Shown here: positions 13,634 to 38,260 of the stretch, piece by piece
Numbering within the stretch: position 1 is the stretch's first letter
Layout of the letters: the number at the start of each line of letters is the position of its first letter
Origin: Calditrichales bacterium
Lineage (GTDB): Bacteria > Calditrichota > Calditrichia > Calditrichales > J004
Assembly: GCA_965267575.1 (NCBI GenBank)
Contig: OZ254086.1
Coordinates: forward strand, 896,001-960,000
Length of the DNA: 64,000 nucleotides
Reading direction: 5' to 3'
Made by a program: the position numbers and the translations under genes
Notes under the pieces: model-generated
Seen by the model: only the letters and a program-made list of their open reading frames with translations
What the model was told of the DNA's origin: nothing
Database searches by the model: none

Positions 13634-13638
13634 TTCGC

Positions 13639-15465: not shown

Positions 15466-15494
15466 GCTTCAGCTCCCTGTTTAGGAAAACACCG

Positions 15495-15653
15495 CTAGAA
15501 AATGGTGTAAATAAACGGTGCCAGCGCACTGCCCTGCGTTAAAACAATAAGCAGACCGAGGCTGATTAAGATGAAAATGATGGGAAAAAGCCACCACTTT
15601 TTATTTTCTTTCAAGAATGAAAAATATTCTGCAACAATACGTACTTTGGACAC
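15495..15653 (-). CDS. DUF5989/SxtK-like small membrane peptide (52 aa)
   Basis: Not in the ORF track. GTG start with GGAG RBS; MSKVRIVAEYFSFLKENKKWWLFPIIFILISLGLLIVLTQGSALAPFIYTIF*; KKWWLxP and SALAPFIYTxF are family signatures. Confidence 0.88.
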   Translation of the reverse strand: MSKVRIVAEYFSFLKENKKWWLFPIIFILISLGLLIVLTQGSALAPFIYTIF

Positions 15654-15733
15654 GATAAATCTCCATCTGGAATCACTGTAATAAACCCGGACACAGGCTT
15701 ATTGCAATGATTCGTCCGTTATGCTTTATGGAT

Positions 15734-15766
15734 AAAAATAAAAAGGAGGCGCAGGAGCGCCTCCTT
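15734..15766 (-). terminator. Intrinsic terminator ending the TBDR operon
   Basis: Minus strand reads AAGGAGGCGC-TCCT-GCGCCTCCTT followed by TTTATTTTT. Confidence 0.85.
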
Positions 15767-15783
15767 GTCAGATCAAACCACGC

Positions 15784-17817
15784 TTATTTCATCATTACCA
15801 TTTTACGTGTTTGTACAACGTCGCCGGCGCGCAGCTGGTAGAAATAGATTCCACTGCCAACCTGGACATTGCTGTTATCCAAACCATTCCATACCAGCTT
15901 ATGAGGTCCGGCCGTTAACTGACCGTTAACCAGCGTACGGATTGTACGACCGGTTACATCATAAACAACAAGCTGAACATCCGTAGCTTTGTTCAGAACA
16001 AACTCAATGTTTGTGCTGGGGTTGAAGGGGTTCGGATAGTTTTGGCGCAGGCTGATGCCTTCAGGAGCGATGATATCGCTGTAGTCATCGATAGCTGTTA
16101 CGCTGTCATAATAGGTACCGTTGGAACCGAATACACGGAATACCGGAGAAGTCGTAACATTGCCTGTATGGTTCTGGGCAAAACCGGCTTCGTTATCAAA
16201 ACCGTTAATGCCGTATTTCCAAACCATGTCCACACCGGCACCGGGGTTGAAGGTAACCGTAATCGACCAGACGTCATCACCGGCCGTAGCATCACCGTCC
16301 GTACCAGCGTCATTCATCTTCAGCGCTTCACGCGTGGGATCGCCGGGAGTAAGGTCCCATACCCAGGCCATTTCCGGATCAGTACCGGAGTGGCCGGAAG
16401 CGAGAAATACATCGTCAATGCTGCTTACATCACCGCCGCCAAAGGTAATGTTACCATACTGCTGCAGGTAACCGATAGCCGGAGTCATGTCAACTTCGAA
16501 AACGATGTTGGTTTCGGTTGTGAAAATATCATCCGGACCGATGTCGCTGAAATAAACCGTATCCAGGACAACTTCGCGGATGTCGTTACCGTTGCTGTCT
16601 TCTTCGTTACCAACGGCAAAGAAGGCACGGTTATCCGTATTGAATTTGGGATCAAAAGCACGGCTTTCCCACACGGTACCACTGCTGTTGGTAATGACAT
16701 ACTTGTAATAAACCGTGTCAGCAATCGGCGTAAGCGAATCTACCCAAATCGTTGAATAGAGGCTTGGATTGAACAGGTCCGGAGAAAGAATATCGCTCGG
16801 ACCGCTCCAGCCGTTGAAACTGCCGCGTACATCCAATGTGTCCGTAGCCGGATCAAATGTACCGGAAAGCTCCTGGATGGAGATGTCGCAGTTGAATACA
16901 ACTTCGAATTCATCTTTTTCGCCCGGCTCAATAACATAAAGATCGCCATTGGAGCCAAACTCACGGAAAACAGGCGATGTGCTTACATCACCCGTGTGGT
17001 TTTGGGCAAAGCCGGCTTCGTTATCATAGCCATTGATGCCGTATTTCCAAACCATGTCCGTACCGGCACCGGGGTTAAAGGTTACGGTAATGGACCAGAT
17101 ATCGTCTTCGGCAACCCTGTCACCATCCATACCGGAGTCATTCATCTTAAGCGCTTCACGCTTTGGATCGCCGGGTGTCAGGTCCCAAACCCAGGCCATT
17201 TCCGGGTCGGTGCCGGAGTGGCCGGAGGCCAGGAATACGTCATCGATGCTGGTAACATCGCCGCCGCCAAAAGTAATCTCGCCGTAGATATCGAGATAAT
17301 CGATGGCCGGAGTCATATCGACTTCAAAAACGACATCGGTTTCAGTCGTAAAAATATCGTCCGGGCTGATATCGCTGAAGTAGACGGTATCCAGAACAAC
17401 CTCTTTCAGGTCGTTTCCATTGTCGTCCGGCTCATTACCCGTGGCGAAGAAAGCGCGGTTATCGGTATTGAAATCCGGATCAAAAGCGCGGCTTTCCCAA
17501 ACGGTACCGCTGCTATTGGTTATTACGTACTTGTAATAAACCGTATCCTGAAGCGGAGTCAGTTCCAGTTCAACCAGAGTCGAATAGAGACTCGGATCAA
17601 ACAGATCCGGCGCCAGGATGTCGCTGGGACCGGCCCAGCCATTGAAGCTGCCGCGTACATCGAGCGTATCCGTTGCCGGATCAAATGTACCGGAGAGCTC
17701 CTGAACGGATATGTCGCAATTGAAAATCACTTCGAATGTTTCCGCTTCCTGGGCGAACGAAGTGGTAATCATAAAGAGCGACACTATCAGAGAGACGAAT
17801 GTAGCTTTGACTCTCAT
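15784..17817 (-). CDS. Secreted non-catalytic protein with two tandem carbohydrate-binding-like units and T9SS CTD
   Basis: Signal peptide; duplicated VRGSFNGW...YYKY (CBM20/SusE-like) and MNDxGxDGDxxAxDDxWS modules; QNYPNPFNP...RKMVMMK. Confidence 0.8.
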   Translation of the reverse strand: MRVKATFVSLIVSLFMITTSFAQEAETFEVIFNCDISVQELSGTFDPATDTLDVRGSFNGWAGPSDILAPDLFDPSLYSTLVELELTPLQDTVYYKYVITNSSGTVWESRAFDPDFNTDNRAFFATGNEPDDNGNDLKEVVLDTVYFSDISPDDIFTTETDVVFEVDMTPAIDYLDIYGEITFGGGDVTSIDDVFLASGHSGTDPEMAWVWDLTPGDPKREALKMNDSGMDGDRVAEDDIWSITVTFNPGAGTDMVWKYGINGYDNEAGFAQNHTGDVSTSPVFREFGSNGDLYVIEPGEKDEFEVVFNCDISIQELSGTFDPATDTLDVRGSFNGWSGPSDILSPDLFNPSLYSTIWVDSLTPIADTVYYKYVITNSSGTVWESRAFDPKFNTDNRAFFAVGNEEDSNGNDIREVVLDTVYFSDIGPDDIFTTETNIVFEVDMTPAIGYLQQYGNITFGGGDVSSIDDVFLASGHSGTDPEMAWVWDLTPGDPTREALKMNDAGTDGDATAGDDVWSITVTFNPGAGVDMVWKYGINGFDNEAGFAQNHTGNVTTSPVFRVFGSNGTYYDSVTAIDDYSDIIAPEGISLRQNYPNPFNPSTNIEFVLNKATDVQLVVYDVTGRTIRTLVNGQLTAGPHKLVWNGLDNSNVQVGSGIYFYQLRAGDVVQTRKMVMMK
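16108..17736. repeat. Intragenic tandem duplication with 828-bp (276-aa) period
   Basis: The FEVxFNCDIS units start at 17736 and 16908, with long identical peptide stretches. Confidence 0.9.
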
Positions 17818-17870
17818 AGATATACCTCCTGTTGATGGTTAGAGTAAAGGTTTTAAAATCCTGCACCCGC

Positions 17871-18890
17871 TTAAAGGCGCAGAAAAATGGTGAATTTCTG
17901 AACGTTATCAAGCCGCCCGAAATGCTCAAAGGCATAATCGAGCTGCATGTTGAGACCGCCAAAATCCTGACGGATGCCGCCACCCACGGTAAAGCCTTCT
18001 TCGCTGTCCGGCAGGAATAGTGCTTTGTAGCCGCCACGCAGCGCCAGCATATTGTCATACACATATTCGGCGCCGGCATTTACGCTTTGCGCGTTGTCAT
18101 TGGGGTGCATCACGTCGGACACAAGGGTCATTGTGTTTTTTTCGTTATTAACCAGATCGTAAGCCAGCCCAAACCGGAACAACAGGGGAAGGTCATACTG
18201 GCCCGTTTCCAGCAAAGCGTTAAGCTGATCATTATTACCGCTGATATTTTTATTTATGTCCACCTGCACCAGCAGGTCATCGCCGCTCATCTGCATTTTG
18301 CCGCCAAAGTTGGAGATGCTGATACCAAGACGCAGCCCGTCGAAAGGCGTGGTAAACAAGGCGCCCACGTCAAGGGCGAAACCGCTGGCCGAAGAGTTAT
18401 AGATATCTTCCTGAATGTATTTACCCGTGAAACCAATCATGAATTTGTCCGTCAGGCGACGGGCATAGGAGAGGCCTACGGCAAAACTTCCGGCCGAGAA
18501 CGTCACACCGGTACCTTCCGGATTGTCCTCCGTGGTCTGTTCAAATTCGCCCATATTCAGGTTGGTAATGCTCACGCCGAATACACCGGCCGTACCCACC
18601 GGCACCGCAACGCCGGCAAACTCAAAATTTATATCCGCCAGCCAATCGGAGTGGTTGAAAATTATTTCAGGTCTGTCGAGCTGGGCAATACCGCCAACGT
18701 TCCAGAACAACGCGGACGCGTCGTTGGAAACAGCGGTAAAAGCGCCGCCCATACTAAGCGGCCTTGCGCCAACACCGATGGTTAAGAAAGGAGCAGCCGT
18801 TGTACCCACCTTTGTAACGTCGCGCGCCTCGGCAACCACCTGGGCGCCCAGCAAAACGGTTATCACAAACAATGCGAGTTTTCGGTTCAT
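17871..18890 (-). CDS. PorV/PorQ (UPF0164)-family outer-membrane beta-barrel
   Basis: KVGTTAAPFLTIGVGARPLSMGGAFTAVSNDASALFWN; beta-strand pattern to the C-terminus. Confidence 0.85.
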   Translation of the reverse strand: MNRKLALFVITVLLGAQVVAEARDVTKVGTTAAPFLTIGVGARPLSMGGAFTAVSNDASALFWNVGGIAQLDRPEIIFNHSDWLADINFEFAGVAVPVGTAGVFGVSITNLNMGEFEQTTEDNPEGTGVTFSAGSFAVGLSYARRLTDKFMIGFTGKYIQEDIYNSSASGFALDVGALFTTPFDGLRLGISISNFGGKMQMSGDDLLVQVDINKNISGNNDQLNALLETGQYDLPLLFRFGLAYDLVNNEKNTMTLVSDVMHPNDNAQSVNAGAEYVYDNMLALRGGYKALFLPDSEEGFTVGGGIRQDFGGLNMQLDYAFEHFGRLDNVQKFTIFLRL

Positions 18891-18926
18891 AGTGCTAACC
18901 TCTTCCCGATAAATCGTTTCTCGTTG

Positions 18927-21900
18927 TTATTTGATGACGGCGAATTTGCCGACTTTTTTGCCAATCCCCGGCGCATCCACGTGATAGATGTAAACACCAT
19001 AGGCCACATCCAGCTGATCCCTGCTCAGCAGGTCCCAATCCGCGGTACCATCGGTAACGGTGGACTCGTGATGGATCGTATCGACGAGTTCGCCTCGCAC
19101 ATTGTATATGCGGATGGTACACACTTTGGGCAGGTGGATAAAGTGAATGGCCCGTTCACCGCGCCCGCTGCTGAAGGTGTTTCGCGGCTCCCAGGCTGCG
19201 GCGGCAATGTAGGGGTTGGGTACAACTTTAATTTTGTCAAGATCGTCTTTTGCAAGCGTTTTGTCTTCTTCCGGACCTTCTGCCGTGAACTCAAAACGGT
19301 CATAGCTCAGGAAAGGTTTGTTAACCGGCAGGATGAGCACGTCACCGGCCTGCGGCAGGACTTTTGTGCTGTCCCATAATGACATGGTTACGCTATATGT
19401 TGGATCATAGCGATCTCTTAACTGATTATATTCAAAGAATATGACTATATCATTTCCGTCCAGAACGCCTTTTAAGCTGTCCGGCTCGGAGTTAACGTTG
19501 TTGTCCGGTCCGCGCTCAAGGACGTTAAATTCTACATATCTGTTTTCCGACGTGTTCTTGACGCGGAAATTGACCGGCGTTTTTCTGAAGCTGTTGGGCA
19601 CCAGGAAGTTGGAGCTGGTGTCTATACCCGCTTCGCCTACTTCAATCTGGTAACTGGCCGGATAGCGCACGCCCTGGAAAACACTGAGGCTGAGCACAGA
19701 CCATCCCGCGGGTGTCGGCTTCAGGATATTGCGCGTTGTGTCCGTCCATGTAACCTCCGTAGGTACAGGACCGGTAATCCAATCGTTGCGCAGGCGCAGT
19801 TTCACGCCATCAAATACGGTGGCGTCCACGTTAATATTTGTATTCAGAGGTACAACGGTATCACCCGTCGTCACATTGTACACATAAAAGCCATCCGTCG
19901 TACGCAGGAAGGTTGTATCGCTTGCTCCGCGAACGATGTACTTGTCCGTAAAGCCAACCTGATAGGTATTGCCGTCCTTTACCTCCAGCGGATCAATAAC
20001 CTCCAGGGAGACGCTGCCGCTGGCATCGCCATCAACGCGCTCCAGGCTTTCCATGGCATCGCCCGGCGGTACATATCCGGCAACCGGAGCTTCAGGCCGC
20101 ACCACTACCACATTCTGGCCCAGCTCAATTTCACCGGCCGTGTTGATGGCGGCAAATTTGGATGTTTCCGACGGCTGCAGAATGCGGCGCTCACCGGAGG
20201 TCGGATCTGTTGCGTTGATACCGCGGTCATAAGCGGTAACCGCGTAGAAATAGTTGAAACCGTTTTTAACCGTGGTGTCTACATAGGTGTGGCGCAATCC
20301 CGTATTATCTCCCAGGTAAAATACAGCGCCCGTCTGCGGATCAACCTCGGGGAAAAAGCCGCTGTCGGCGTTTACAATATCAAATTGCGCAACAGGCACG
20401 TCACTTATGCGGCTGCCAAACACGTTGGTAACAACACCCGTTTCATCCCAGGTGGGGAAGGTAGCGCGGTAGACTTTATACCCCTCAAAATCATTACCGT
20501 CACCGGTAACAACTTCCGAAAGCCTGTCATAACTCTGCTCGGAATTGCTGTCCCAATACAAGGTAACTTTGTTGTCACCCGCGGCAGCCCTAAGCTTGGG
20601 CAACTGGGGTGCTTTTGCAAAATTGTAATCGTTATTATAAATAAGCTGTACGGTATTCTTTGTGCGGAAAATTTCGTTTTCGTTATTACCAAAGAAGAAG
20701 GCCAGCGAGATGCGTTCGGTCTGGTTGACCTGAAGCGGGAAGTAAGCCGTTCCGTAGATAAAGTCCACGTCATCGTTCTGCAGTTCGTCGTCGAAGTAGC
20801 CGGGAAGCAGTGTTTCCCAAAGCTGGTCATCGTTGCGCAGGCGGATCAGGTTAAACGGCTTGAACAAATAGAAACTCGTCAAACCGATCTGGTCAGACTC
20901 GTCAATATCCGTTTTATCGATATTAGGCTCACCGGGAAGACCCGTGTCAACAAGATTACCTGTGCCATCGTCCTGGTAACCCGACGTGGGCAATCCATCA
21001 CCTTCGCCAAAGTCGTTTGTACCCGGTTGACCGTCCAGACCCACGTCATCAATCGAGGCGTTCCAGTCTCCATCATTATCAATACCGTCGGCACGGCTTT
21101 CATCTATAAGCGGATTGGTGCTGTTACCGCCGATAAAGTCTTTATAGGCCAAACCGATTTGCGGGTTTTCTTCATCTACCAGACCGTTGTTGTTGTTATC
21201 GATACCGTCCTGGATCTCTGTGTTTTCATCGATAAGACCGTTTAGGTTGTTATCAATATTATCATAGGGCTGTTCGTACAGCGTATCGCCGGGCTGGAAG
21301 GAATAAGTTTCATCATTTACGGTAAACGTGATGCCTTCGGCGGGAAAATCTACAACGCTGCGTGTAAAGAACGGTGAATCATAATCGATCGTAACTACCT
21401 GCTCGCCTGTCTGTATGACCCGCGGTAACAATAAATCTTCCGTGATTACCGCACTTCCATCAGTACCATCATTGTCATCATCAAAACCATTTACGCTATT
21501 GCCCGGGCTTTCCAGGAAGGCGTAACCCAGGTAAGCAACAGGTGTCCATCCCGTTCCGCCGATATTATCATTATCCCAGGAATAGGTGATGTTTTCTCGG
21601 GCATTAAAACGGGAGTTGTCATCGTTTGTATCACCGTCGCCGCCGATTGTAGTACCGACGATCATGCCAAAAACGGCTTTATCGTAATTGGTTGTACCGA
21701 TGTTAGTCACATCATAAAGCCAAAAGACTGTATTTTGAGCCAGGGTTTGCGACCACTGCAAACCACGGACATTGGCAAGCAAAGCCAAACCTCCGCGAGT
21801 CGTGTCATTGGCATCTGGGAAAAAGTCAAAACCACGAATAAACTCCTTATCGCGGTTGTCATCCATTGCCCAGTAGCTTTCCTGGTCGGCATTAAACTGG

Positions 21901-22412
21901 TCCTTGCCAAAAAAGCCGTTCCACTGTCCGGGCCAGCCGGGGTCGTTGGCATCGGTGCGTCTGTCGGGCCAGTCCGTGGGCCAGGTTCCCCGCTGATGGC
22001 TCATGGCAACGCCACTGTCGGAAGCGTTAAAACCGGGCAACGGCTCCCAGCCCCAGAAAAAGGTGGGATCATTGGGGTCAACATCGTTGCTGCCGCGCGG
22101 TCCGTCAGACACGGTCACGGGCGTAATGATCTGGCCGTCGGATAACTCAATTTCAGCACCTACCATGATGCTGATGTCGCCTACGTAAAAATGACCGCTG
22201 TTGATAGGCCATTCACCGCCAAAATCTTCAGCGGCATTTTCACGGCCAATAAGACCATAATTAAAAAAGGTTGTCCGTACCTGGTTGCCGCTGTGAACGT
22301 TTTTTTCACGATTATTGGGATGCCCTTTGAGGGTCTCGTAATACTGCGCGGAAACAAGGGCGGGCAAAATGGCGATTATGGCAGCCAGCCGAATAAGGTG
22401 TTTCAGTTTCAT
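18927..22412 (-). CDS. Large acidic secreted protein (1161 aa) with Ca-binding-like repeats, FN3 domain and variant CTD
   Basis: Signal peptide; DGIDNxxxG repeats; AGDNKVTLYWD..FEGYKVYR FN3-like segment; C-terminal IKVVPNPY...GVYIYHV...GKFAVIK. Confidence 0.8.
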   Translation of the reverse strand: MKLKHLIRLAAIIAILPALVSAQYYETLKGHPNNREKNVHSGNQVRTTFFNYGLIGRENAAEDFGGEWPINSGHFYVGDISIMVGAEIELSDGQIITPVTVSDGPRGSNDVDPNDPTFFWGWEPLPGFNASDSGVAMSHQRGTWPTDWPDRRTDANDPGWPGQWNGFFGKDQFNADQESYWAMDDNRDKEFIRGFDFFPDANDTTRGGLALLANVRGLQWSQTLAQNTVFWLYDVTNIGTTNYDKAVFGMIVGTTIGGDGDTNDDNSRFNARENITYSWDNDNIGGTGWTPVAYLGYAFLESPGNSVNGFDDDNDGTDGSAVITEDLLLPRVIQTGEQVVTIDYDSPFFTRSVVDFPAEGITFTVNDETYSFQPGDTLYEQPYDNIDNNLNGLIDENTEIQDGIDNNNNGLVDEENPQIGLAYKDFIGGNSTNPLIDESRADGIDNDGDWNASIDDVGLDGQPGTNDFGEGDGLPTSGYQDDGTGNLVDTGLPGEPNIDKTDIDESDQIGLTSFYLFKPFNLIRLRNDDQLWETLLPGYFDDELQNDDVDFIYGTAYFPLQVNQTERISLAFFFGNNENEIFRTKNTVQLIYNNDYNFAKAPQLPKLRAAAGDNKVTLYWDSNSEQSYDRLSEVVTGDGNDFEGYKVYRATFPTWDETGVVTNVFGSRISDVPVAQFDIVNADSGFFPEVDPQTGAVFYLGDNTGLRHTYVDTTVKNGFNYFYAVTAYDRGINATDPTSGERRILQPSETSKFAAINTAGEIELGQNVVVVRPEAPVAGYVPPGDAMESLERVDGDASGSVSLEVIDPLEVKDGNTYQVGFTDKYIVRGASDTTFLRTTDGFYVYNVTTGDTVVPLNTNINVDATVFDGVKLRLRNDWITGPVPTEVTWTDTTRNILKPTPAGWSVLSLSVFQGVRYPASYQIEVGEAGIDTSSNFLVPNSFRKTPVNFRVKNTSENRYVEFNVLERGPDNNVNSEPDSLKGVLDGNDIVIFFEYNQLRDRYDPTYSVTMSLWDSTKVLPQAGDVLILPVNKPFLSYDRFEFTAEGPEEDKTLAKDDLDKIKVVPNPYIAAAAWEPRNTFSSGRGERAIHFIHLPKVCTIRIYNVRGELVDTIHHESTVTDGTADWDLLSRDQLDVAYGVYIYHVDAPGIGKKVGKFAVIK

Positions 22413-22430
22413 ATCTGTTGTCTCTCGTTT

Positions 22431-25121
22431 TTAAAAGTCAAACGAAACGCCAAACTGTACGCGTCGCGGTTCGGTGTAAAAATCGGGCCGGACGATAAAG
22501 CGCGGATCGGCATCGGCGCCGCTCACGGCACTTTGCAGCGTATAGGTAGCGCGTCCGGTGTCGCCCCAAACAACTTGCTCATTACGCGCGTCCAGCAGAT
22601 TGTAAACTTTCAGGAAAAGCTGAAGCTTTGTCTCCTTATCAAAAAAGTCCAGCGGTATATCTTTAAACAGCTGCATATCCAGTGTTACCAGGTTGGGACG
22701 GCGTTCGCTGTTTTGCTGCAAACCGATGGAACCGGCACTTGTACTGGCCCCGCGCTGCGTGCCCTGTACCGGAGTCGGCGTATATGGCAGCCCGCTCTCA
22801 AAACGTCCCAGCAAACTCAGCCCCCAGGTACCGACACCCACATATATATTACCGTTCAACACGTGGCGGCGATCCCAATCCAACGGAATAATGCTTTTGC
22901 GCGGCTCACGATTAGACTGTATGTCATTGAAAGCATCGGTCGGGTTGGAAGCATTACCTTCAGCAACCTGCATGGTGTAGGAAACGTTGGCCGAGTAATA
23001 ATTGGAAAAACGCTTGTTAAGCGAGAACGTGATGCCGCGGACATTGGCATAATCACGGTTTTCATATTGCGAATAAAGGATATCCGGGCGGTAGGTTTCG
23101 ATCAGCGGCGAGGTGCTTACCCAGTTGCGCACGTCACGATAGAAGCCGGTGACGTCAACGCCGATATCATCCGTCATTTGCTGCTGCAGGCCTATCTCGT
23201 ACATGACCGTGCGCTGCGGCTTCAGATCGGCGTTACCCACCAGGTTGCCCTGGCCGCGCGTAACCTTAAAGCCCGGGTTGGCATAAAGCAGCTGAAATTC
23301 GGGAATCTGCGAAAAGTGGCCGTAAGAAGCATGGATAACGCCTCGCGCACTGATCGGAAACGCCATACCGATACGCGGCGAAACGCTGTATTTGGGATCG
23401 GCCTTCTCATACCAGATGTCTTCCAGCGAAGAGGGTGTATCATCCTGGTACTCTTCTCTCAACGGCGAGAAGCGGCTGGGATCCTGCGGATCGGCAAGCA
23501 CATTACCCTTGGAGTCGAAGTAGTCAAAACGCAAACCGATATTCAGAATAAAGTCGTCATACTCCACTTTGTCCTGGATATAAAAGGCAAACTCAATCGG
23601 CTCAAAGGTATACTGACCAAAATTGATATCTTCTACCGGGGGCCTTATCGGTGTATAAAGCGTGTCCGAAACATTGGAATCGATGATATTGAAATCTTCA
23701 AGATTCAGCTCGTAGCGGCGCGCTTCAAAACCTGTTTTGATAAGGTGCTTATCCGAAATCTGTGACGTAATATCAAACTTCACGATGTCATTCAGGGTAC
23801 TGCGGTTAAAATAATTTGTCTGCTGCCCGCCCTTGGAAAACTGAAAGGCCGAAACGGCAAACTCCTCCGAGGCATTGTCCACATAACGCGGATCGGAAGG
23901 GCTTTCATAAACATATTGTTCGAATTCTTTTTTGAAGCTGGCAAGCTTTAAGGTATAAAACGTGGTTACGTTGATCGTATGGTCAAATGTGAGCGAGCCG
24001 TTATAACCGGTCTGGAACTTTTGGAACTCAGCATCCGGATTGAATTTGTAAAAGTGATTGTAATCCTGCCACTCACGGTCTTCATAATTGAAGCCAAAGC
24101 GCAGCTTCATGCTGGGATTGATCTGGTAGGTCAGTTTATTCTGCGATGTATACCAGCGGTTCCAGTTCATCGCTACAAAAGAGCTGTCGCCCGGCGTACC
24201 ATCCGTGTTAAAAATGCGCTGGCCGTAGAGATAGCCGTCATCGTAACTGTTGCGAAAGTTGGTAAAAAAGGTCAGCCGGCCGTTTGTGAAAGGTACAGGG
24301 CCGCCAACATTTACTTTCCAGTCGTAAAGGTGGCTCGGAGAAACTTCATCTATGTTGGTAAAAAGGCCGTCATCGCTGGATATGTAATCGCCCGTGTAAG
24401 CGGAAACGGAACCTGAATATTTCTGGCCGCCGTCTTTGGTCACAATATTGATAATACCGGACATGGCCTGGCCGTATTCAGCATTAAAGGTTCCGCTGAT
24501 GACCTGCAAGCTCTGAACAGCATCGTTTTCAATTTCCACACCATTACTGCCATCAAAAGCATCGGTCACCGAAACGCCATCCACCCAAAAGGCAACCTCG
24601 GAAGAACGGCCCCCGCGGATATGAAAACCACCGCCGGCATCCCGCGTGATACCCGCCTGCAACTGCAACACATCCTCAAACTCTTCAACCGGTATATTCG
24701 CGATATCGTCTGCCGTCACTTCAGATTGAGATGAAGTCAGGTCCTTACGGATCATATCGCGATCGGCCACAACAACGATCGACTCATCCAGCTCCATGGC
24801 ATCTTCACGTAACTGTGCGTTTTGGCGCGTAGTAAAGTCAACGCTGACCCTTACACCTTCAACGCGTTTTTCCTGATATCCGATGTATTGGAAGACAAGG
24901 GTGTAAACACCCGGCGGGACGTTAAGAATAAGGTAATTACCTTCAAGGTCGGTTGTGGCACCGAGGAAAGTACCGTCTACAAGTACGTTTACTCCGATAA
25001 GCGGTTCACCTGTGCCGGCATCCTCTACGGAGCCAACGATTTTACCGGTCGTACCCGCGCTTGCACTAATGGGAATGAGCAGGCTTATTAATAAACAAGC
25101 CTTGATGATTTTTCGCACCAT
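22431..25121 (-). CDS. TonB-dependent receptor
   Basis: N-terminal carboxypeptidase-regulatory-like domain; plug HIRGGRSSE..VDGVS; SGTFNAEYGQAMSGIINIVTKDG; SPRIGMAFP; C-terminal Phe. Confidence 0.93.
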   Translation of the reverse strand: MVRKIIKACLLISLLIPISASAGTTGKIVGSVEDAGTGEPLIGVNVLVDGTFLGATTDLEGNYLILNVPPGVYTLVFQYIGYQEKRVEGVRVSVDFTTRQNAQLREDAMELDESIVVVADRDMIRKDLTSSQSEVTADDIANIPVEEFEDVLQLQAGITRDAGGGFHIRGGRSSEVAFWVDGVSVTDAFDGSNGVEIENDAVQSLQVISGTFNAEYGQAMSGIINIVTKDGGQKYSGSVSAYTGDYISSDDGLFTNIDEVSPSHLYDWKVNVGGPVPFTNGRLTFFTNFRNSYDDGYLYGQRIFNTDGTPGDSSFVAMNWNRWYTSQNKLTYQINPSMKLRFGFNYEDREWQDYNHFYKFNPDAEFQKFQTGYNGSLTFDHTINVTTFYTLKLASFKKEFEQYVYESPSDPRYVDNASEEFAVSAFQFSKGGQQTNYFNRSTLNDIVKFDITSQISDKHLIKTGFEARRYELNLEDFNIIDSNVSDTLYTPIRPPVEDINFGQYTFEPIEFAFYIQDKVEYDDFILNIGLRFDYFDSKGNVLADPQDPSRFSPLREEYQDDTPSSLEDIWYEKADPKYSVSPRIGMAFPISARGVIHASYGHFSQIPEFQLLYANPGFKVTRGQGNLVGNADLKPQRTVMYEIGLQQQMTDDIGVDVTGFYRDVRNWVSTSPLIETYRPDILYSQYENRDYANVRGITFSLNKRFSNYYSANVSYTMQVAEGNASNPTDAFNDIQSNREPRKSIIPLDWDRRHVLNGNIYVGVGTWGLSLLGRFESGLPYTPTPVQGTQRGASTSAGSIGLQQNSERRPNLVTLDMQLFKDIPLDFFDKETKLQLFLKVYNLLDARNEQVVWGDTGRATYTLQSAVSGADADPRFIVRPDFYTEPRRVQFGVSFDF

Positions 25122-25260
25122 GTCCAGAGAGCTCCCTTAGGCTTTTAAGATGTGTTTTTCCTTCCGGAGAAATTGGTCACCCAGTTTTGAGTTACTAATC
25201 TAATAAAAAGTCTAGCTGATAAAAATAAATTTTTAACTTTTTTACCTGGAATTGCTCCTT

Positions 25261-26631
25261 TTACCAGTTGTATTGCTCTCTGACGACTGTAACGATTCGT
25301 GGCACCCTTTGCTGTAAGGCTTGCGGGGAGAGGCCTTCAAGGAGCGCACTGGTATCAACACGGGCGGGATTTTCCTGTCGTATTTCGGCGAGGATATTTT
25401 TGCGGTATTGCCATTCTGTGGGGTTTGCCTCAGCGGCACTAGCCAGCAGGATGGATTTCTGGTATTCGTCAGCGAGAAGTTCGCGACGGTATTTGGTCAT
25501 TTCCTGGCGGAAGCGCGGTGATTCGTCTATACCCAGTTCGCGGGCTTTTTTTAACAGGTAGTGGTCGCGCACCATATCTATAATCTGCCGGGCCATTGCC
25601 GTTTCGGAAAGCACTTCAGGGCGTTTCAGCGGCGGCATCCATTGCAGTTTTTCCATCAGGTCGCCAACGGTCCAGATGCCGTCATCGTATTGAACCAGTT
25701 CCTGATTCATCAGCGCCTCTGCCTCGCTGCGGATCAGTCGTATCTCCCGGTCGCTGATAGTAGGCTCAATTATAAAACGCTGGCCTTCGCTTCGGTCTAC
25801 ATATTTGCGCACCTGCTCCGTAAACTGCTGTAACACGGCTGAAACAATCGTTACCGATTTACCTTTCATTACTTCCTTCACAAAAGCGGCGCTCTCTTTT
25901 GCCGCCCGGCGGTTTTGGACATCTTCAGCAAAGGTCGTGCTGTTGTTCTTGAAATAGTTGCGGTCCAGAAAAAGGTTTTGCTTAACATTCTCCACGCGCA
26001 TTACGTGCCAGCCTCTGGTCGAACGCAGCGGCCGGGAAATCTCGCCGACACGCAAATTATAGACCGGCTCTACCAGGTAAGGGTCCAGGTCACTGACGCG
26101 CAGATAGCCGAGATAACCGCCATTATTTGCCAACGACGTATCACGAAAAGCGCCGCGCGCCAGCGTTTGAAAAGTCTCGCCCGATTGCAGTTTTTTGTAA
26201 TAAGCGGCAGCCTGCTGGCTATCGGGGGCAAAGAGGTGGCGCAGTTCCACACTGATATTTTGACGCTTGTATTCTTCCCAGGCTTCCTCTTCGCTCACTT
26301 CAATCTGGCCCAGCACCTGTTCGCGGTAAAGCTGCTTAAGCATTTCGTTATCGCGGATGTATTGCAAACGCTTTTCAACATGCTGCATGGTGTCCAGCCC
26401 ATAGCGTTCGGCGGCCTGCGCCAGGTAAACGCGGTCAACCATGTGATCAATCTGCTGCAGGTAGGCGCTGCGCAGCGTACTGTTGTTGCGAAAGTCCGGG
26501 TAAAGTGTAAAACGTTCGATAAAGTGTTCGCGCGTTATCGTATCGTCATCCACCCGGGCCACCACATTGGGGTCATCCTTTGTGCCGCAGCCGGCCACAA
26601 CAATCATTAATAAAAACAAAAAATATTTCAT
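25261..26631 (-). CDS. Lipoprotein parvulin-type peptidyl-prolyl isomerase (PrsA/SurA-like)
   Basis: VAGC lipobox; VARVDDDTIT; RHL..GETFQTLAR..NGGYLGY..GEISRPLRSTRGWHVMRV. Confidence 0.85.
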   Translation of the reverse strand: MKYFLFLLMIVVAGCGTKDDPNVVARVDDDTITREHFIERFTLYPDFRNNSTLRSAYLQQIDHMVDRVYLAQAAERYGLDTMQHVEKRLQYIRDNEMLKQLYREQVLGQIEVSEEEAWEEYKRQNISVELRHLFAPDSQQAAAYYKKLQSGETFQTLARGAFRDTSLANNGGYLGYLRVSDLDPYLVEPVYNLRVGEISRPLRSTRGWHVMRVENVKQNLFLDRNYFKNNSTTFAEDVQNRRAAKESAAFVKEVMKGKSVTIVSAVLQQFTEQVRKYVDRSEGQRFIIEPTISDREIRLIRSEAEALMNQELVQYDDGIWTVGDLMEKLQWMPPLKRPEVLSETAMARQIIDMVRDHYLLKKARELGIDESPRFRQEMTKYRRELLADEYQKSILLASAAEANPTEWQYRKNILAEIRQENPARVDTSALLEGLSPQALQQRVPRIVTVVREQYNW

Positions 26632-28631: not shown

Positions 28632-28654
28632 GTATACTGTTATGCTCCGTAAGA

Positions 28655-30772
28655 TTATTGTAATGTACCCAGCTGACGGGAAAACTGCCGCAAACCTTCA
28701 TCATCCGGTTTTAGTTGCAGTGCCCGATCGATCCATTGCCGCGCTTCGGCTATGTTGCCTGCCGCCGCCTGTATACGGGCCAGGGCGGCCATAAACGAAA
28801 TTTCTTCGGGATTTTGTCTCAATCCGTCCTGCAAAAGCCTCGCGGCTTCGTTGCCGCGTTGCTGGCGCAGTAAAAGCTGAACAAGGGCCGTCCGTGCGTT
28901 TACGTGTTGCGGATCAAGCTTAAGAGCTTCGCGGAAATCGCTTTCAGCGCGGTCCAGGCTTCGCGGCAGAAGTGAAAAGAGCTGGCCACGGTTAAAGTAA
29001 AGCGGCGCGTAGTCCGGACACATGTCAAGTCCGCGCTGATACCAGGTAAGGCCTTTTTGAAAACGCAGCGCCGCTTCACGCTGCTTTTGTGCACGGGCAT
29101 AGTCCTGGACGAGCGCTGTCTCCAGCAGCCCCAGCCGGTTATAGCCTTCGCAGCTTTCTTCAATGGCAAGCGATGCCTCATATTCGGCGCGCGCGCGCTC
29201 AAGGTCGCCCTCGCTGAAAAGCGCATAGCCGTAGTCCAGATGCAGCAGGTGCAGCGGCAAAGCACGATCAAAAATATAGAGCCTGGCCAGTTTTTCGGTC
29301 TGCTCGTTACCCACGCGGCGGTATGGTGCAACAGGACGACCGCTGTGCGTAAAAGGCCAGTGGTTTTTTAAGCGAAAGGCGGCCATGCCGGCCACTTCAT
29401 GCGATAAGATGGTCAGCTTGTTCATGTCCAGGTAAGCGGAATCGCTCAGGGCCAGCGACCAGTCCCACAACGGCGCAACGAGCCCTCTTTCGGACATGGT
29501 GAGAGCGATGGCTTTTGCCATGGCGTAATAGCCCAGCGCGTTGGGGTGTATGTGCTCCAGAATCAGATTTTCGCCGGGGACGCTGTCCGGTGATGTTTGA
29601 ACGAAGGCCGAAAAGACATCGGCCACGGGCAGGCCTTTGTAGCCGGCCACCTCCTTTATGATCGCATTAAACCGTGACGGTGCGCGGAAGCGGATAACGT
29701 CAAGATCGCGGGCGCGGATAAATGCTGAGAGCGCCCTGCTCTTTTGCCCTTTGGCCAGCAGGTTGCGGGCCAGCCAGTAATGCGCTTCGGCGTAGCTACT
29801 GTCTATTTGCAGGGCTACGTCAAGGTTGCGGATGGCGGCATCAGGCGCGCCTTCGTTGAAAAGTCTTTCACCTGCCTGAACCTGTTTTAAAAGCTCTTCG
29901 CGCGCCGGCTCATTCAACTTTTCCGCGGCTTGCGATCCCAGCGGTGGCAGATCACGCAGGTTGTCGGCCAGTGTGCAAAGCAGCAGCGGCACCTCTTTGT
30001 CTGAAGCAGCATCGGCCAGATCGAGCAGGTTGGCGCGGTAATGTTCCGCGGTGCGGTTCAGCAGGGGACTATCCAACGGTATTTCCGCATCCCGGGCCAC
30101 TGTGCCCATCAGCGTGGCCGGATCGATCACCGACCCGGCATCGATGGATTCGCCAAACAGGGAGATGTAGCTGTTACGCAGCAACAAAAACAGCCGGGAG
30201 CGCTGCAGGCCGAGAAAAAGACGCGTCAGCCCGCGGCTGTCAAACAACGTCAGCCGGGAAGCCGACCCCAAAGCGCCGTAAAATTCGTTATGCCCGCTGT
30301 AAACGATGAGCAGATCAGGCTCATAGCGCTCAAGAATTTCCAGCCCCATGTCCAGAACCGAATGACTGGTAATGGCCGTAACGCCGCAATTGACGATCTC
30401 GAAATCGCGCTGCGGATGAATGGATTCCAGAATATGGCCGAGCATGGCGGGAAAAGATGCGTTGGGCGGATAAGGCACACCCTGCGTGGTGGATGCACCG
30501 AGGCAGAAAATACGATAGGTTTGGGGATTTTTATCCAGGGCAAAGCTCTGGCTGCGCGGGTCCGGCGGCGTAATGCCTTTCTTGAAAAAATAACGCTGCA
30601 TAAAATTGGGGTTGAGCTCATAGCGCGCAGAGTCGCCGCTGCCTTTTGCCACAAACAGAGATGTATCGCCGCCGTAGTCCGCCAGGCGCAGAACACCCTC
30701 GGCTACAAGCAAAAGCACTACAAACAGAGCGACGGTTACAAAACTGAACAGAATTTTTTTAATTGGCGACAC
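28655..30772 (-). CDS. Membrane-anchored SGNH/GDSL-fold protein with TPR repeats (paralog 2)
   Basis: N-terminal TM; CLGASTTQG, NCGVTA, YSGHNEF and EHIHPN; TPRs. Confidence 0.85.
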   Translation of the reverse strand: MSPIKKILFSFVTVALFVVLLLVAEGVLRLADYGGDTSLFVAKGSGDSARYELNPNFMQRYFFKKGITPPDPRSQSFALDKNPQTYRIFCLGASTTQGVPYPPNASFPAMLGHILESIHPQRDFEIVNCGVTAITSHSVLDMGLEILERYEPDLLIVYSGHNEFYGALGSASRLTLFDSRGLTRLFLGLQRSRLFLLLRNSYISLFGESIDAGSVIDPATLMGTVARDAEIPLDSPLLNRTAEHYRANLLDLADAASDKEVPLLLCTLADNLRDLPPLGSQAAEKLNEPAREELLKQVQAGERLFNEGAPDAAIRNLDVALQIDSSYAEAHYWLARNLLAKGQKSRALSAFIRARDLDVIRFRAPSRFNAIIKEVAGYKGLPVADVFSAFVQTSPDSVPGENLILEHIHPNALGYYAMAKAIALTMSERGLVAPLWDWSLALSDSAYLDMNKLTILSHEVAGMAAFRLKNHWPFTHSGRPVAPYRRVGNEQTEKLARLYIFDRALPLHLLHLDYGYALFSEGDLERARAEYEASLAIEESCEGYNRLGLLETALVQDYARAQKQREAALRFQKGLTWYQRGLDMCPDYAPLYFNRGQLFSLLPRSLDRAESDFREALKLDPQHVNARTALVQLLLRQQRGNEAARLLQDGLRQNPEEISFMAALARIQAAAGNIAEARQWIDRALQLKPDDEGLRQFSRQLGTLQ

Positions 30773-30920
30773 GCTTCTTCCGCTGCTAAAAATGTAAAGA
30801 TGGTTATTTTAATAAAATCGTATTGCAAAAAAAAGACAGCGCCGGCTCTCTTTGGGGCCGCCCTTTACGCGTTTCCGTGAATTGCGTATTTTGCTTTTTT
30901 CTTTAAATGACCTGTCAACG

Positions 30921-32828
30921 ATGCACAAAAAAAGCCTGTTCCAGATAATTACTGTTTTTCTCGTCGTCCTTCTTCTGGCGCTTGTGGAAGGCGCGCTGAG
31001 GTTGTTCGGCTACGGGGATGATCTGTCTGTTTTTTACCGTCACCCGCAGTTGACGGACTACTATTTTATAAACCCTAACACCGGACGCCGCTATTTTCCT
31101 CGGGCCGAAGAGAAACCGCTGGTTTCGGGTGATGCGTTCCGTGTGCAAAAGCCGGAAAACGGTCTTCGCCTGTTTGTTTTCGGTGGCTCCAGCGCTGCAG
31201 GATATCCCTGGTTCCACAATGGCGCTTTCAGCCGCATGCTGCGTGACCGACTCAGCGATCTCTATCCGCAGCGTATCATCGAGGTGGTGAACGTGGCCAT
31301 GCCCGCCGTTAACTCCTACACCATCGTGGATCTGGCCGGCACGGTGGCGCGCTACGACGCGGACATTTTTTTGGTTTACGCCGGTCACAACGAGTTTTAC
31401 GGCGCATTAGGCGTTGCTTCTTCGGAAACAGTTGGCGGAAAGCGCTTCCTGATAAAAACCTACCTGGCCTTGCAGCATGTGCGATTGTTTCAGTTGCTGC
31501 AGGATGGCATTGGCGGTGTTGCCGGGTGGTTTGGCGGTAAAGCGCCCGCCGGCCGCGACGACCGTACTTTGATGGAACGTATGGTGGACGAGCAACGGAT
31601 CGCCTATGGCAGCGCGCGCTACGAAAAAGCCATGGAGATCTTCGGGCAAAATATGAATGAATTTGCGCGGATTGCGCGTGAAAATAATATCACCGTTTTT
31701 TTCAGCGAAGTTGTAAGCAACGAAAGTGACCAGCCGCCTTTTGAACCCGTTGAGAATACGCCCTTTACAAACACCTGGCTGGATTCGCTGCCGCAGTCGC
31801 CGGGCTATGACACGATAAAAGATTACCTTCAGAAGCAGCCCGGAGATGCTGCCCTGCACTACCGGCTGGCACGGCAACTCGCGCAAGACAGCCTGTACGG
31901 ACAGGCTGCGCGTCATTTCACATTTGCCAAAGACCTGGACGGCCTGCGTTTCCGGGCCAGCGAAGACATCAACAGGATCATTCGGCGCGTCGCCCGCACA
32001 CACAATTTTCCTTTGGTTCCGCTCAAGCAGCATCTGCGCGATCTTTCGGAGCACAGCCTGATAGGCACCAACTGGATGCTGGAGCACCTGCATCCCAATC
32101 TGCGCGGCCAGTTTGAGACAGCGAAAGCCTTTGCCCGCTCCATCGCGTCAGAAATAGCGGGCGGTGCTTCGGCGGCGAGCGACTCTCTCTATTACAACCG
32201 CCTCGGCGTCACCACAATCGACAGCCTGATCGCTGATTACCGCATCCGCGTTTTGATGGCGGGCTGGCCCTTTCGCGATAGCTCGGGGGTGCAGGAGGTG
32301 ATCAGTCGGTTTGTGCCGCAAACCGTTGAGGAAAAGCTGGCGCTGGACGTTTGGCGCAACAACCTATCCTGGTACGACGCCCACGTTCAGCTGGCGAAGC
32401 TCTATCTGCAACAGCAAAGCTGGCCGGCCGCCGAGGTGGAACATGAGGCGTTGGCAAAGGAGAGGCCCTACGATATCAACCTGCAAAACAGGCTGGCGGA
32501 AATATACATTCAGCAAAACAAACTGAATGACGCGCAATGGGCCTTAAGGCGTTCGCTGCAGGCCGGCGAGAACCTTTTTGCCTTGCGCATGCTGGGGTCA
32601 CTGCTGGTAAATGAGAAAAAACTGCCGCAAGGTATCGCGCTTCTGGAACAGGCCCTGGAAATGGATGCGACCGACAGACAGACACTTTACAATCTTTCCG
32701 GCGCCTATGCCATAACGGGCCGCTGGCAGGAGGCAGAGCAAAAGCTTCTGACTCTTCTGCAACATCACGCGGATTATCAACCGGCGCGGGCATTGCTGGA
32801 GCAGGTTCGGCAGCAGCTGAGCAATTAG
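30921..32828 (+). CDS. Membrane-anchored SGNH/GDSL-fold protein with TPR repeats (paralog 3)
   Basis: Start moved to ATG 30921 (MHKKSLFQII); VFGGSSAAG, NVAMPA, YAGHNEF and EHLHPN; TPRs. Confidence 0.85.
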   Translation: MHKKSLFQIITVFLVVLLLALVEGALRLFGYGDDLSVFYRHPQLTDYYFINPNTGRRYFPRAEEKPLVSGDAFRVQKPENGLRLFVFGGSSAAGYPWFHNGAFSRMLRDRLSDLYPQRIIEVVNVAMPAVNSYTIVDLAGTVARYDADIFLVYAGHNEFYGALGVASSETVGGKRFLIKTYLALQHVRLFQLLQDGIGGVAGWFGGKAPAGRDDRTLMERMVDEQRIAYGSARYEKAMEIFGQNMNEFARIARENNITVFFSEVVSNESDQPPFEPVENTPFTNTWLDSLPQSPGYDTIKDYLQKQPGDAALHYRLARQLAQDSLYGQAARHFTFAKDLDGLRFRASEDINRIIRRVARTHNFPLVPLKQHLRDLSEHSLIGTNWMLEHLHPNLRGQFETAKAFARSIASEIAGGASAASDSLYYNRLGVTTIDSLIADYRIRVLMAGWPFRDSSGVQEVISRFVPQTVEEKLALDVWRNNLSWYDAHVQLAKLYLQQQSWPAAEVEHEALAKERPYDINLQNRLAEIYIQQNKLNDAQWALRRSLQAGENLFALRMLGSLLVNEKKLPQGIALLEQALEMDATDRQTLYNLSGAYAITGRWQEAEQKLLTLLQHHADYQPARALLEQVRQQLSN

Positions 32829-32875
32829 CTTTTTGCAGAAAACACGGGTCTGAGGGGTAGCAGGCAGGCTTTCTT

Positions 32876-33298
32876 TCAGCTCATCTTTTCATAGTTGCTT
32901 TTATAATCGCCGCGGGGCTTCCAGTAGCTGGAGGCGTCGCCCCGGAAACCATCATCGATAAAGCGCTTACCGCTGAGACGAGCCACAAAAGCAATCGGCG
33001 TAACCACCAAAAAATATATCAGCGTTAAAATCACCCGTGAAACCAGCCAGCCTAATGCAAAAGCCAGTCCCATCCAGACTTTATGCAGCGGCTTTACCAC
33101 TGCCGGCGCAGCCAGCCCCACGGTAAACACCAGTACCAGCACTGCCAGAAAACTCTGCCAGAATCCGCTGAGGTCTTCGTAAAAATAGAACAGGATGCCG
33201 ATACAGATAACCATCATCAAAACGGCAAACTGGCGCAGGCTTTTCTCACTTTGATTTAGCTCGCCCAGCTCCTGGCGCACGTCTCTAATCCAGCCCAT
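32876..33298 (-). CDS. SxtJ-family membrane protein
   Basis: LRQF...PLHKVWMGLAFALGWLVSRVILTLIYFLVVTPI...SSYW; overlaps the carbamoyltransferase stop. Confidence 0.85.
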   Translation of the reverse strand: MGWIRDVRQELGELNQSEKSLRQFAVLMMVICIGILFYFYEDLSGFWQSFLAVLVLVFTVGLAAPAVVKPLHKVWMGLAFALGWLVSRVILTLIYFLVVTPIAFVARLSGKRFIDDGFRGDASSYWKPRGDYKSNYEKMS

Positions 33299-35102
33299 AT
33301 TGTGTCCTCCAGTCGCCTTCTTCTTTAAATTCGGGCTGGTCGTTTTTAAGCAATATATGATTACCTAATACCAATACATCCATTTCGGTGCGCATAAAAC
33401 AGGCATAGGCCTGCATGGGCGATTCTACTATCGGCTCCCCGCGCACATTAAAGGATGTGTTGACAATAACGGGACAGCCGGTTTTTTTGTGAAATTCTTC
33501 AATCAGCCGGTAATAACGCGGATTGTGCTCCTTGTTCACCGTCTGGATGCGTGCCGAATAGTCCACGTGCGTAACCGCCGGTATTTCCGAACGCGTAAGG
33601 TTAAGTTTGTCGATGCCGAACAGTTTTTTCTCGCTGTCGCTTATTTTTTTCTGTTTCTCCTTTTTCACATCGGCCACCAGCAGCATATAGGGACTTTCAC
33701 GGTCGATCTCAAACCATTCCGACACATGATCTGCCAATACCGAAGGCGCAAAGGGACGGAAGCTTTCGCGGTATTTGATCTTGAGGTTCATCTTCTTCTG
33801 CATTTCGGGGGAACGGGCGTCGCCGATGATGCTGCGGTTGCCCAGCGCCCGCGGGCCAAACTCCATGCGTCCCTGGAACCAGCCGATCACTTTGCCCTTA
33901 TCGAGGTGGTCGGCAACTTTAGACATCAGTGTCTTTTCATCATGCAGGTGGTACGGAATTGCCTTGCGGTTTAGAATTTCGCGGATCTGCTCGTCGCTGT
34001 AAGCGGGTCCGAGATAGCTGCCCTGCTGCGGGCTTTTGCCCTTTTTGGGTTTCGCTGCTTTGCCCAGGTGCTGGTGCCAGACCACCAATGCCGCGCCCAG
34101 TGCTCCGCCGGCATCACCGGCCGCCGGCTGAATCCAGATGTCTTCAAACAGGCCTTCACGCAGCAGCTTGCCGTTGGCCACACAATTGAGCGCCACGCCG
34201 CCGGCCAGGCAGAGATATTTTTGGCCGGTTTCCTTTTTTACCTGACGTGCCATGCGCATAACAATCTCTTCCGTTACATCCTGTACGGAGCGGGCCAGGT
34301 CCATCTCACGCTGGGTGAGGCGGCTTTCGGGGCTGCGTGGCGGTCCGTCAAAAAGTGTGTTGAATTTGCGGTTGGTCATGGTTAGCCCGACGGGATAGTT
34401 AAAGTACTCCATGTTAAGCCGGAAAGAGCCGTCTTCTTTCAGGTCCACAAGGTTTTCGAGAATGGTTTTTACGTAACGCGGTTCACCGTAAGGTGCAAGG
34501 CCCATCACCTTGTATTCACCGGAGTTTACCTTAAAGCCGGTATAATAGGTAAAAGCGGAATAGAGCAATCCCAGCGAATGCGGGAAATCCATTTCGGCCA
34601 TAATAGTGACGCGGTTGCCCTTGCCTACGCCATAGGTGGAGGTGGCCCATTCGCCCACGCCATCCACGGTGAGAAAGGCGGCCTGATTAAAGGGCGACGG
34701 GAAAAAAGCGGAAGCGGCGTGCGACTCATGGTGCTCGGGGAACAGCACGTCGCCTTCAAAGCCCAGCTCCTTTTTTATTACATCGGGAATCCACAGCTTT
34801 TGGCGCAGCCACAGCGGCATGGCCATGATAAACGAGGGCAGCCCTTTGGGCGCGTAGTGCAGATATGTTTCCAGCAGACGGTTAAATTTAATGAAGGGCT
34901 TATCGTAGAAAGCCACGTAGTCGAGGTCGGCAGCGCTTAGACCCGCTTCACGCAGGCAATAATCGGCGGCGTATTTGGGAAAGCGGTGGTCGTGTTTTTT
35001 ACGGGTAAAACGCTCTTCCTGCGCAGCGGCGACTATTTTCCCATCTACAAGCAGCGCCGCGGCAGAGTCGTGGTAGAAGGCAGAAATACCGAGTATGTTC
35101 AT
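33285..35102 (-). CDS. NodU/CmcH/SxtI-family O-carbamoyltransferase
   Basis: ILGISAFYHDSAAAL, QEERFTRKKH, EHHESHAASAF, DGVGE, GEYKVMGLAPYG, GGVALNC, EFGPRALGNRS and NTSFNVRGEP. Confidence 0.96.
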   Translation of the reverse strand: MNILGISAFYHDSAAALLVDGKIVAAAQEERFTRKKHDHRFPKYAADYCLREAGLSAADLDYVAFYDKPFIKFNRLLETYLHYAPKGLPSFIMAMPLWLRQKLWIPDVIKKELGFEGDVLFPEHHESHAASAFFPSPFNQAAFLTVDGVGEWATSTYGVGKGNRVTIMAEMDFPHSLGLLYSAFTYYTGFKVNSGEYKVMGLAPYGEPRYVKTILENLVDLKEDGSFRLNMEYFNYPVGLTMTNRKFNTLFDGPPRSPESRLTQREMDLARSVQDVTEEIVMRMARQVKKETGQKYLCLAGGVALNCVANGKLLREGLFEDIWIQPAAGDAGGALGAALVVWHQHLGKAAKPKKGKSPQQGSYLGPAYSDEQIREILNRKAIPYHLHDEKTLMSKVADHLDKGKVIGWFQGRMEFGPRALGNRSIIGDARSPEMQKKMNLKIKYRESFRPFAPSVLADHVSEWFEIDRESPYMLLVADVKKEKQKKISDSEKKLFGIDKLNLTRSEIPAVTHVDYSARIQTVNKEHNPRYYRLIEEFHKKTGCPVIVNTSFNVRGEPIVESPMQAYACFMRTEMDVLVLGNHILLKNDQPEFKEEGDWRTQYGLD

Positions 35103-36752: not shown

Positions 36753-36822
36753 ACGATAAACCCTTGACGTACAAACAGCAAAAAGTATACGTATAATCCC
36801 AAATAATTGCAAAGGAGAAACC

Positions 36823-38242: not shown

Positions 38243-38260
38243 ATTTTTGTCTGTTCAGTC

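Follow-up and report, generated by a model that had tools for sequence, protein, structure and literature searches.

The stretch analysed here is a window of 64,000 nucleotides (nt) from a Calditrichales bacterium of the phylum Calditrichota (positions 896,001 to 960,000 of contig OZ254086.1). It contains genes for a carbamoyltransferase (CT) of the NodU/CmcH type, a membrane protein of the SxtJ family, a small peptide of the Pfam family DUF5989 and three SGNH-fold proteins with C-terminal TPR repeats (SGNH-TPR proteins), which are considered below as candidate parts of a single system of carbamoyl transfer (Table 1). The genes of the window were scanned with Pfam, and the whole genome is available as a single contig of 4.73 Mb that is 98% complete. 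An earlier note, made by a model from the letters of this window, had pointed to a single-pass peptide ending in FIYTIF, and translation confirmed it: the gene has a GTG start codon with GGAG upstream and encodes 52 residues with one hydrophobic helix, ending APFIYTIF, the tail GSALAPFIYTIF standing directly before the stop codon. Against DUF5989 (PF19451) the peptide scores 84.7 bits, where the cut-off is 27, and the match spans profile positions 2-49 of 49. The CT carries both the N- and C-terminal carbamoyltransferase domains, as NodU/CmcH-type enzymes do, and the SxtJ protein reaches 46.6 bits against a cut-off of 24.4 for PF19588; the CT stop and the SxtJ start overlap by 14 nt. DUF5989, SxtJ and CT are each present in one copy in the genome, all within 20 kb. 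The note had also described these genes as one cluster, which is true in so far as all of them are present and the three SGNH-TPR genes adjoin SxtJ/CT, but the peptide gene lies 17 kb from SxtJ/CT and about half of the interval (15784-26631) is part of a starch-utilisation locus built on a type IX secretion system (T9SS). Its remark that no MBOAT protein accompanies them holds for the genome as a whole, where PF03062 gave 0 matches and control genomes did give matches, and likewise no MBOAT was seen among the picked and scanned open reading frames (ORFs) neighbouring the loci of relatives.

Table 1. Features of the window that bear on the candidate carbamoyl transfer system (positions are those of the window; TM, transmembrane)
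Feature	Position	Strand	Properties and evidence
DUF5989 microprotein	15495..15653	-	52 aa; basic N-terminus, one TM helix; Pfam PF19451, E 4.5e-24
Terminator-like hairpin between T9SS cargo gene and peptide gene	15743..15766	-	10-bp stem with 7 GC pairs, then T run
SGNH-TPR protein 1, 667 aa	26628..28631	-	N-terminal TM anchor, SGNH domain with helical insert, C-terminal TPR; Pfam Lipase_GDSL_2 and TPR
SGNH-TPR protein 2, 705 aa, paralog of protein 1	28655..30772	-	Pfam; 33% identity to protein 1, catalytic blocks aligned
SGNH-TPR protein 3, 658 aa from TTG	30852..32828	+	Pfam; alignment with both paralogs
SxtJ-family membrane protein, 140 aa, three long helices	32876..33298	-	PF19588, E 6e-12
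NodU/CmcH-type carbamoyltransferase (CT), 605 aa	33285..35102	-	PF02543 (Carbam_trans_N), E 8e-106; PF16861 (Carbam_trans_C), E 9e-77

Endings of the form F.Y..F are rare, being found in only 2 of 32,957 ORFs of at least 40 aa in the genome, and this rarity together with the gene anatomy shows that the peptide observation is real and not a chance pattern. The peptide family is large (975 matches of similar length; 3,236 clusters at 50% identity, E<=1e-3) and its C-terminus is almost unchanging, with APFIYxxF ending all 120 close homologs analysed and the strict motif pattern found in 146 of 150 representatives of the 50%-identity clusters; two more of these representatives end AFIYTIF and the last two are a low-complexity protein of 1106 aa and a truncated protein. 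The motif stood at the exact C-terminus in 130 of the 146, and the other 16 run on into what appears to be stop codon read-through. The earlier note had proposed the invariance of the terminal Tyr and Phe as a check of its idea, and in a 40-sequence alignment F47, Y49 and F52 were invariant, as were P24 and S42, so that the peptide has the C-terminal FXYXXF with invariant Tyr that is expected of a DltX-type shuttle microprotein. Over 242 peptides the flank N-terminal to the helix averaged 5.07 Lys/Arg residues compared to 0.40 in the C-terminal flank, from which the positive-inside rule predicts that the N-terminus is inside, as the note had thought probable, and that the C-terminal tail, with its Tyr motif, is on the outer face. 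A search for fused forms yielded 12 longer proteins compared to the 975 of peptide-like length. Two of these (P0279 and P0281, singletons from K/N-rich organisms) are fusions to CT which join exactly at the stop codon of the peptide; they are probably read-through products or genes called under another genetic code, and this read-through-like junction led us to set them aside as evidence on topology.

The three SGNH-TPR paralogs are 30-33% identical to each other and each has an N-terminal hydrophobic helix; a fourth paralog is encoded elsewhere in the genome. The true start of protein 3 is probably an ATG 23 codons into the ORF, at MHKK. Residues 1-460 of protein 1 were modelled with AlphaFold2 (AF2) at high confidence (predicted local distance difference test score, pLDDT, 91.2; predicted template modelling score, pTM, 0.89) with an SGNH core that follows an N-terminal helix and carries a large helical insert, and the best structural match of this model was 4q9a_B (Z 19.0, root-mean-square deviation 3.2 Å over 199 residues). 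Across 51 SGNH homologs G86, S88 and H393 were invariant, and a TM-like segment precedes the SGNH domain in 57 of 57 homologs, so that fold, catalytic Ser and His and anchor are all those of an N-anchored extracytoplasmic SGNH partner, and the proteins look both active and membrane-bound. The anchor itself has an unusual feature, in that it ends in Glu followed 3-5 residues on by Arg or Lys in 38 of the 57 homologs compared to 27 of 2,212 control ORFs (about residues 5-25 of the SGNH-TPR proteins of the window; homologs in loci L039-L132), suggesting that it probably makes a specific intramembrane contact, as in DltD, beyond tethering the protein.

SxtJ was modelled as helices at residues 18-39, 46-63 and 65-109 (AF2, pLDDT 89.6), with strong conservation only at F24, W75 and P101. 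The protein resembles a scaffold or conduit, and charges alone leave its topology ambiguous. The Pfam model for SxtJ misses two genes (G071:C131:2809-3198 and G083:C222:1403-1792), both of which were found by a profile made from the SxtJ sequences gathered here (E 2e-35 and 3e-33), and counts of SxtJ based on Pfam are therefore too low.

The association of these families extends well beyond the window. Eighty peptide loci were taken from genome records of many phyla (Bacteroidota, Nitrospirota, Nitrospinota, Acidobacteriota, Gemmatimonadota, SAR11, other Proteobacteria, Omnitrophota, the candidate phyla radiation (CPR), Actinomycetota and others) and the 10 kb around each peptide were taken as its neighbourhood. 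CT was found within this distance in 67 of the 80 loci and SxtJ likewise in 67, in varying gene orders, and in relatives CT, SxtJ and the peptide usually form a contiguous trio. An iterated profile of the SGNH domain from the window matched in 46 of 80 loci at E<1e-3 and in 43 at E<1e-10, and in 34 of 80 an SGNH gene lies no more than 300 bp from a gene of the trio; in SAR11 the genes abut in the order SxtJ-SGNH-peptide-CT. As a control for background, the same profile gave 8 matches in the whole 4.73-Mb genome, 4 of them strong and 3 of these 4 in the window, and of 8 SGNH-profile matches sampled 6 had a Pfam GDSL match at E<=1e-5, with the one in locus L122 matching additionally at E 1.5e-5. 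The four families thus co-occur far above background, a check that the earlier note had proposed. No alternative donor enzyme was found among 43 neighbour ORFs scanned (picked from 90 called) at the 12 loci without CT or SxtJ. Locus L122 (JAACEJ010000034.1, labelled Actinomycetota) has a peptidyl-prolyl isomerase, the peptide, an SGNH-TPR protein and a 610-aa SSF symporter gene in a layout like that seen in the phylum of the window, and its contig may be mis-binned.

Within the phylum itself, Pfam counts over 86 genomes found DUF5989 in 61, SxtJ in 56 (an underestimate) and the CT C-terminal domain in 64. Of 20 phylum loci that were fetched, 19 held the peptide and 17 of those 19 also held CT and SxtJ. 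Presence of the peptide and of SGNH-TPR proteins agreed in 77 of the 86 genomes (both in 57, neither in 20), with the peptide alone in 4 and SGNH-TPR alone in 5; eight of the nine discordant genomes are 52-90% complete and the ninth (G013) 91%, and the joint absences are spread over several families. This co-distribution is strong, but not statistical, evidence that the two belong together.

PMC12148441 describes FXYXXF as the acyl shuttle motif of DltX and of bacterial MBOATs, in agreement with what the earlier note had said of it, and reports that Neisseria PatA (NgPatA) ends in FIYANF and that the acetylated hexapeptide is the donor for PatB. On that account the DltB-DltX-DltD system shares with the present one a single-TM microprotein, an FxYxxF with invariant Tyr at its extreme C-terminus and an N-anchored extracytoplasmic SGNH partner (PMC12148441). 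It differs in that here the genome has no MBOAT and the peptide no detectable homology to DltX, in that the donor would be an ATP-dependent CT paired with a 140-aa SxtJ and the group presumably carbamoyl rather than acyl or aminoacyl, and in that the present module is found in diderm, monoderm and CPR lineages. In PatA-PatB and the AlgI-type MBOAT-SGNH O-acetyltransferases the same C-terminal hexapeptide hands its group to the SGNH serine (PMC12148441), but there the motif is fused to the MBOAT whereas here it is on a free peptide, and the MBOAT that serves as transmembrane donor in MBOAT-SGNH systems is missing.

There is also a likeness in gene content to the saxitoxin cluster, for which the earlier note had said that sxtI, sxtJ, sxtK and sxtL encode the same four protein types, and the sizes and roles of these genes fit that statement. 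In PMC2679770 they are consecutive and of 1839, 405, 165 and 1281 bp, sxtL being a GDSL gene, so that they resemble the present module in size and order, and the SxtJ of the window matches the Pfam family named after sxtJ. Judged by size and gene order, SxtK would be a DUF5989 member. The saxitoxin papers give sxtJ and sxtK as "unknown" or as acting "in conjunction" with sxtI, and sxtL as a putative decarbamoylase (PMC2885083, PMC2679770 and a 2026 bioRxiv preprint). The present module differs in that no other saxitoxin-pathway families were seen in the Pfam scans of the window and in being spread over many non-cyanobacterial phyla. In the library of papers searched, subscription journals not included, DUF5989 is named in no paper, "acyl shuttle" with SGNH is confined to papers on Dlt and Pat, and for carbamoyltransferase with DltX none of the matches listed was on the topic by title or abstract.

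Taken together, gene anatomy, conservation and co-occurrence suggest that CT, SxtJ, the DUF5989 peptide and the membrane-anchored SGNH proteins are one module, an MBOAT-free tyrosine-shuttle carbamoyl relay resembling DltB/DltX/DltD or PatA/PatB, a reading to which we give about an even chance and whose mechanism we infer as follows. Activation of carbamoyl phosphate as carbamoyl-AMP is established for the CT family, and this would be the first step, carried out by CT in the cytoplasm. Docked on SxtJ, which would couple it to the membrane, CT would then carbamoylate the invariant Tyr in the uncharged C-terminal tail of the peptide; O-carbamoyl-Tyr, presented by the tail on the outer face, would react with the catalytic Ser of a membrane-anchored SGNH protein (anchored at its N-terminus), which would in turn pass the group on to a hydroxyl on an acceptor outside the cytoplasm. 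Aryl carbamates are well established to carbamoylate serine hydrolases, which makes an O-carbamoyl-Tyr donor chemically reasonable, and the presence of several SGNH paralogs to a single peptide and CT suggests several acceptor specificities.

A carbamoyl relay had been the central proposal of the earlier note, and what speaks for it (Tyr conservation, predicted topology, co-occurrence and the absence of MBOAT) has to be set against a number of observations, of which the lack of detectable homology to DltX is the first: no Pfam family but DUF5989 matched the peptide at E<0.19, the DltX sequences themselves not being part of the comparison by alignment, and a peptide-profile search of PDB chains gave an unrelated best match (E 1.2). 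The SxtJ alignment has no conserved Ser, His, Cys or Lys, and so no residue of catalytic type, and the SxtJ model had no structural match in the PDB at E<=0.001; with neither a conserved catalytic residue nor a structural relative, SxtJ leaves the crossing of the membrane without explanation. The top matches of the SGNH model are all generic esterases (Z 17-19) and a transferase of the DltD or PatB type does not stand out among the top 50 (Foldseek, VIA-align), although it is not excluded. CTs of the NodU/CmcH family are known to carbamoylate soluble acceptors directly. Of the 80 loci, 28 lack an SGNH gene in the 10-kb neighbourhood although CT and SxtJ are there, and 4 have peptide and SGNH without CT or SxtJ nearby. 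In G082, a single-contig genome from the same class that is 92% complete, the peptide adjoins an SGNH-TPR gene (L052, G082:C1:4044800-4063117) but neither CT nor SxtJ was found genome-wide by Pfam, protein query or profile. The statistics of the profile within the phylum overstate the case because related genomes are not independent. Finally, in this window the peptide gene is tied transcriptionally to a sugar symporter gene (SSF) and not to CT, since 29 nt separate it from the SSF gene downstream and the hairpin at 15743-15766 parts it from the gene upstream, meaning that here it is transcribed apart from CT/SxtJ.

Alternatively, SxtJ and the peptide could be mere membrane-tethering or regulatory subunits of a CT that carbamoylates a cytoplasmic or lipid-linked substrate directly, with the SGNH proteins being hydrolases (e.g. 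decarbamoylases or esterases) of the carbamoylated product or of other substrates and the Tyr motif structural. NodU/CmcH-type CTs do act directly on hydroxyl acceptors, SxtJ without conserved catalytic residues would suit a subunit, and the 28 loci with no nearby SGNH and an SGNH fold closest to esterases also speak for it. The saxitoxin literature points the same way, with SxtL proposed to be a decarbamoylase and SxtI, SxtJ and SxtK proposed to work "in conjunction" (PMC2885083, PMC2679770). We nevertheless regard this explanation as unlikely, though worth keeping in view, since it does not account for a motif, FxYxxF, that stands exactly at the C-terminus with its Tyr invariant and is predicted to face outwards, for the way the peptide and SGNH-TPR proteins are present or missing together, for the conserved Glu-bearing TM anchor of the latter, or for the genome (G082) that retains peptide and SGNH without CT.

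A different role for the peptide is suggested by the crocagin pathway (PMC10070186), which has a carbamoyltransferase (CgnI), an SGNH-fold protein (CgnD) and a small peptide whose aromatic core is the C-terminal tripeptide of the precursor. By analogy, the DUF5989 peptide could be a ribosomal precursor of a natural product or cofactor, its C-terminal residues being carbamoylated and then cleaved off by a CgnD-like SGNH peptidase, and indeed a full-length match to CgnD (8a2n), the crocagin hydrolase, was obtained with our SGNH profile (E 1e-14). CgnD was, though, only 50th in the Foldseek ranking, and the peptide has a TM helix, is near-invariant over many phyla across its 3,236 clusters (E<=1e-3) and is accompanied by membrane-anchored SGNH proteins, whereas the crocagin enzymes and precursor are soluble. 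That pathway is moreover defined by a dioxygenase and peptide-binding proteins, and neither these nor any other crocagin-type tailoring enzyme turned up when the window genes were scanned with Pfam (the CgnB/CgnE-type family was not searched for by name), so we consider a precursor role improbable.

The genes lying between the peptide and the rest of the module belong to another function. Positions 7159-15465 encode two T9SS alpha-amylases, of which one has a T9SS sorting tail, together with an esterase and the SSF symporter, and 15784-26631 encode a T9SS cargo protein with CBM20/CBM53 signals, a barrel of the PorV/PorQ family, a 1161-aa protein without a Pfam family, a SusC/RagA-like receptor and a SurA-like isomerase; 7159-26631 is thus a starch-utilisation locus built on T9SS, and 15784-26631 is outside the candidate system. 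The block of SurA-like, SusC-like and 1161-aa genes was tried as a part of the system and rejected, because 85 of the 86 phylum genomes carry the 1161-aa family, in several copies (2-20 matches in each), so that its distribution does not follow the trio. SGNH-TPR genes often share an operon with this block: the stop of SGNH-TPR protein 1 overlaps the start of the SurA-like gene by 4 nt, and at three loci of relatives (L043, L045 and L052) an SGNH-TPR gene stands between the SurA-like gene and the SusC-like gene, from which it follows that in this phylum SGNH-TPR genes share an operon with an outer-membrane uptake module. In three families of the phylum starch-locus genes are again found beside the trio, and this recurrent adjacency accounts for the peptide being split from the trio in this genome. 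It seems hardly credible to us that the peptide in this genome serves the neighbouring SSF symporter as a small subunit or belongs to the starch locus, its nearness to CT/SxtJ being leftover synteny, for although the peptide stands just ahead of SSF behind a terminator-like hairpin, occurs with SGNH-TPR and SSF in L122 and is part of a trio flanked by SSF genes in L039, elsewhere it adjoins SxtJ/CT (67 of 80 loci each; 17 of 19 phylum loci) and SSF is found in only 1 of 80 loci, while here DUF5989, SxtJ and CT are single-copy and close together.

Further along the window, at 36103-36824, a PIN-domain gene and a DUF6364 gene upstream of it form a pair resembling a toxin-antitoxin system, between a gene for a queuosine-precursor transporter and a small SGNH gene (37455-38243). 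A hybrid two-component regulator of 1385 aa (Reg_prop, Y_Y_Y, HisKA, HATPase, receiver and AraC helix-turn-helix domains) is encoded at 46146-50303, and the G+C content around it is much lower, at 0.35-0.37 compared to about 0.50.

The association of the DUF5989 peptide, CT, SxtJ and SGNH proteins over many phyla suggests an undescribed form of carbamoyl transfer to targets outside the cell membrane. More tentatively, and with confidence that falls short of even, DUF5989 may be a widespread carbamoyl carrier peptide which, with SxtJ, lets an ATP-dependent cytoplasmic CT send carbamoyl groups over the membrane as O-carbamoyl-tyrosine without MBOAT or AT3, diversified SGNH transferases then placing them on envelope polymers or small molecules. 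On this more tentative reading the system would be a third and unrecognised route of extracytoplasmic group transfer, running from SAR11 to Nitrospira and CPR bacteria, and the small genes that accompany carbamoyltransferases, which have long gone unexplained, would gain a function. To our knowledge tyrosine shuttles have so far been described in MBOAT and AT3 acyltransferases only, and a carbamoyl relay of the kind proposed, if true, would extend the shuttle principle to another donor chemistry (carbamoyl-AMP) and another membrane partner. With 3,236 clusters of the peptide at 50% identity, O-carbamoylation might then be a widespread modification of the envelope. The relay would also give a testable role to proteins of the SxtJ and SxtK types, which have been "unknown" in print since 2008-2010.

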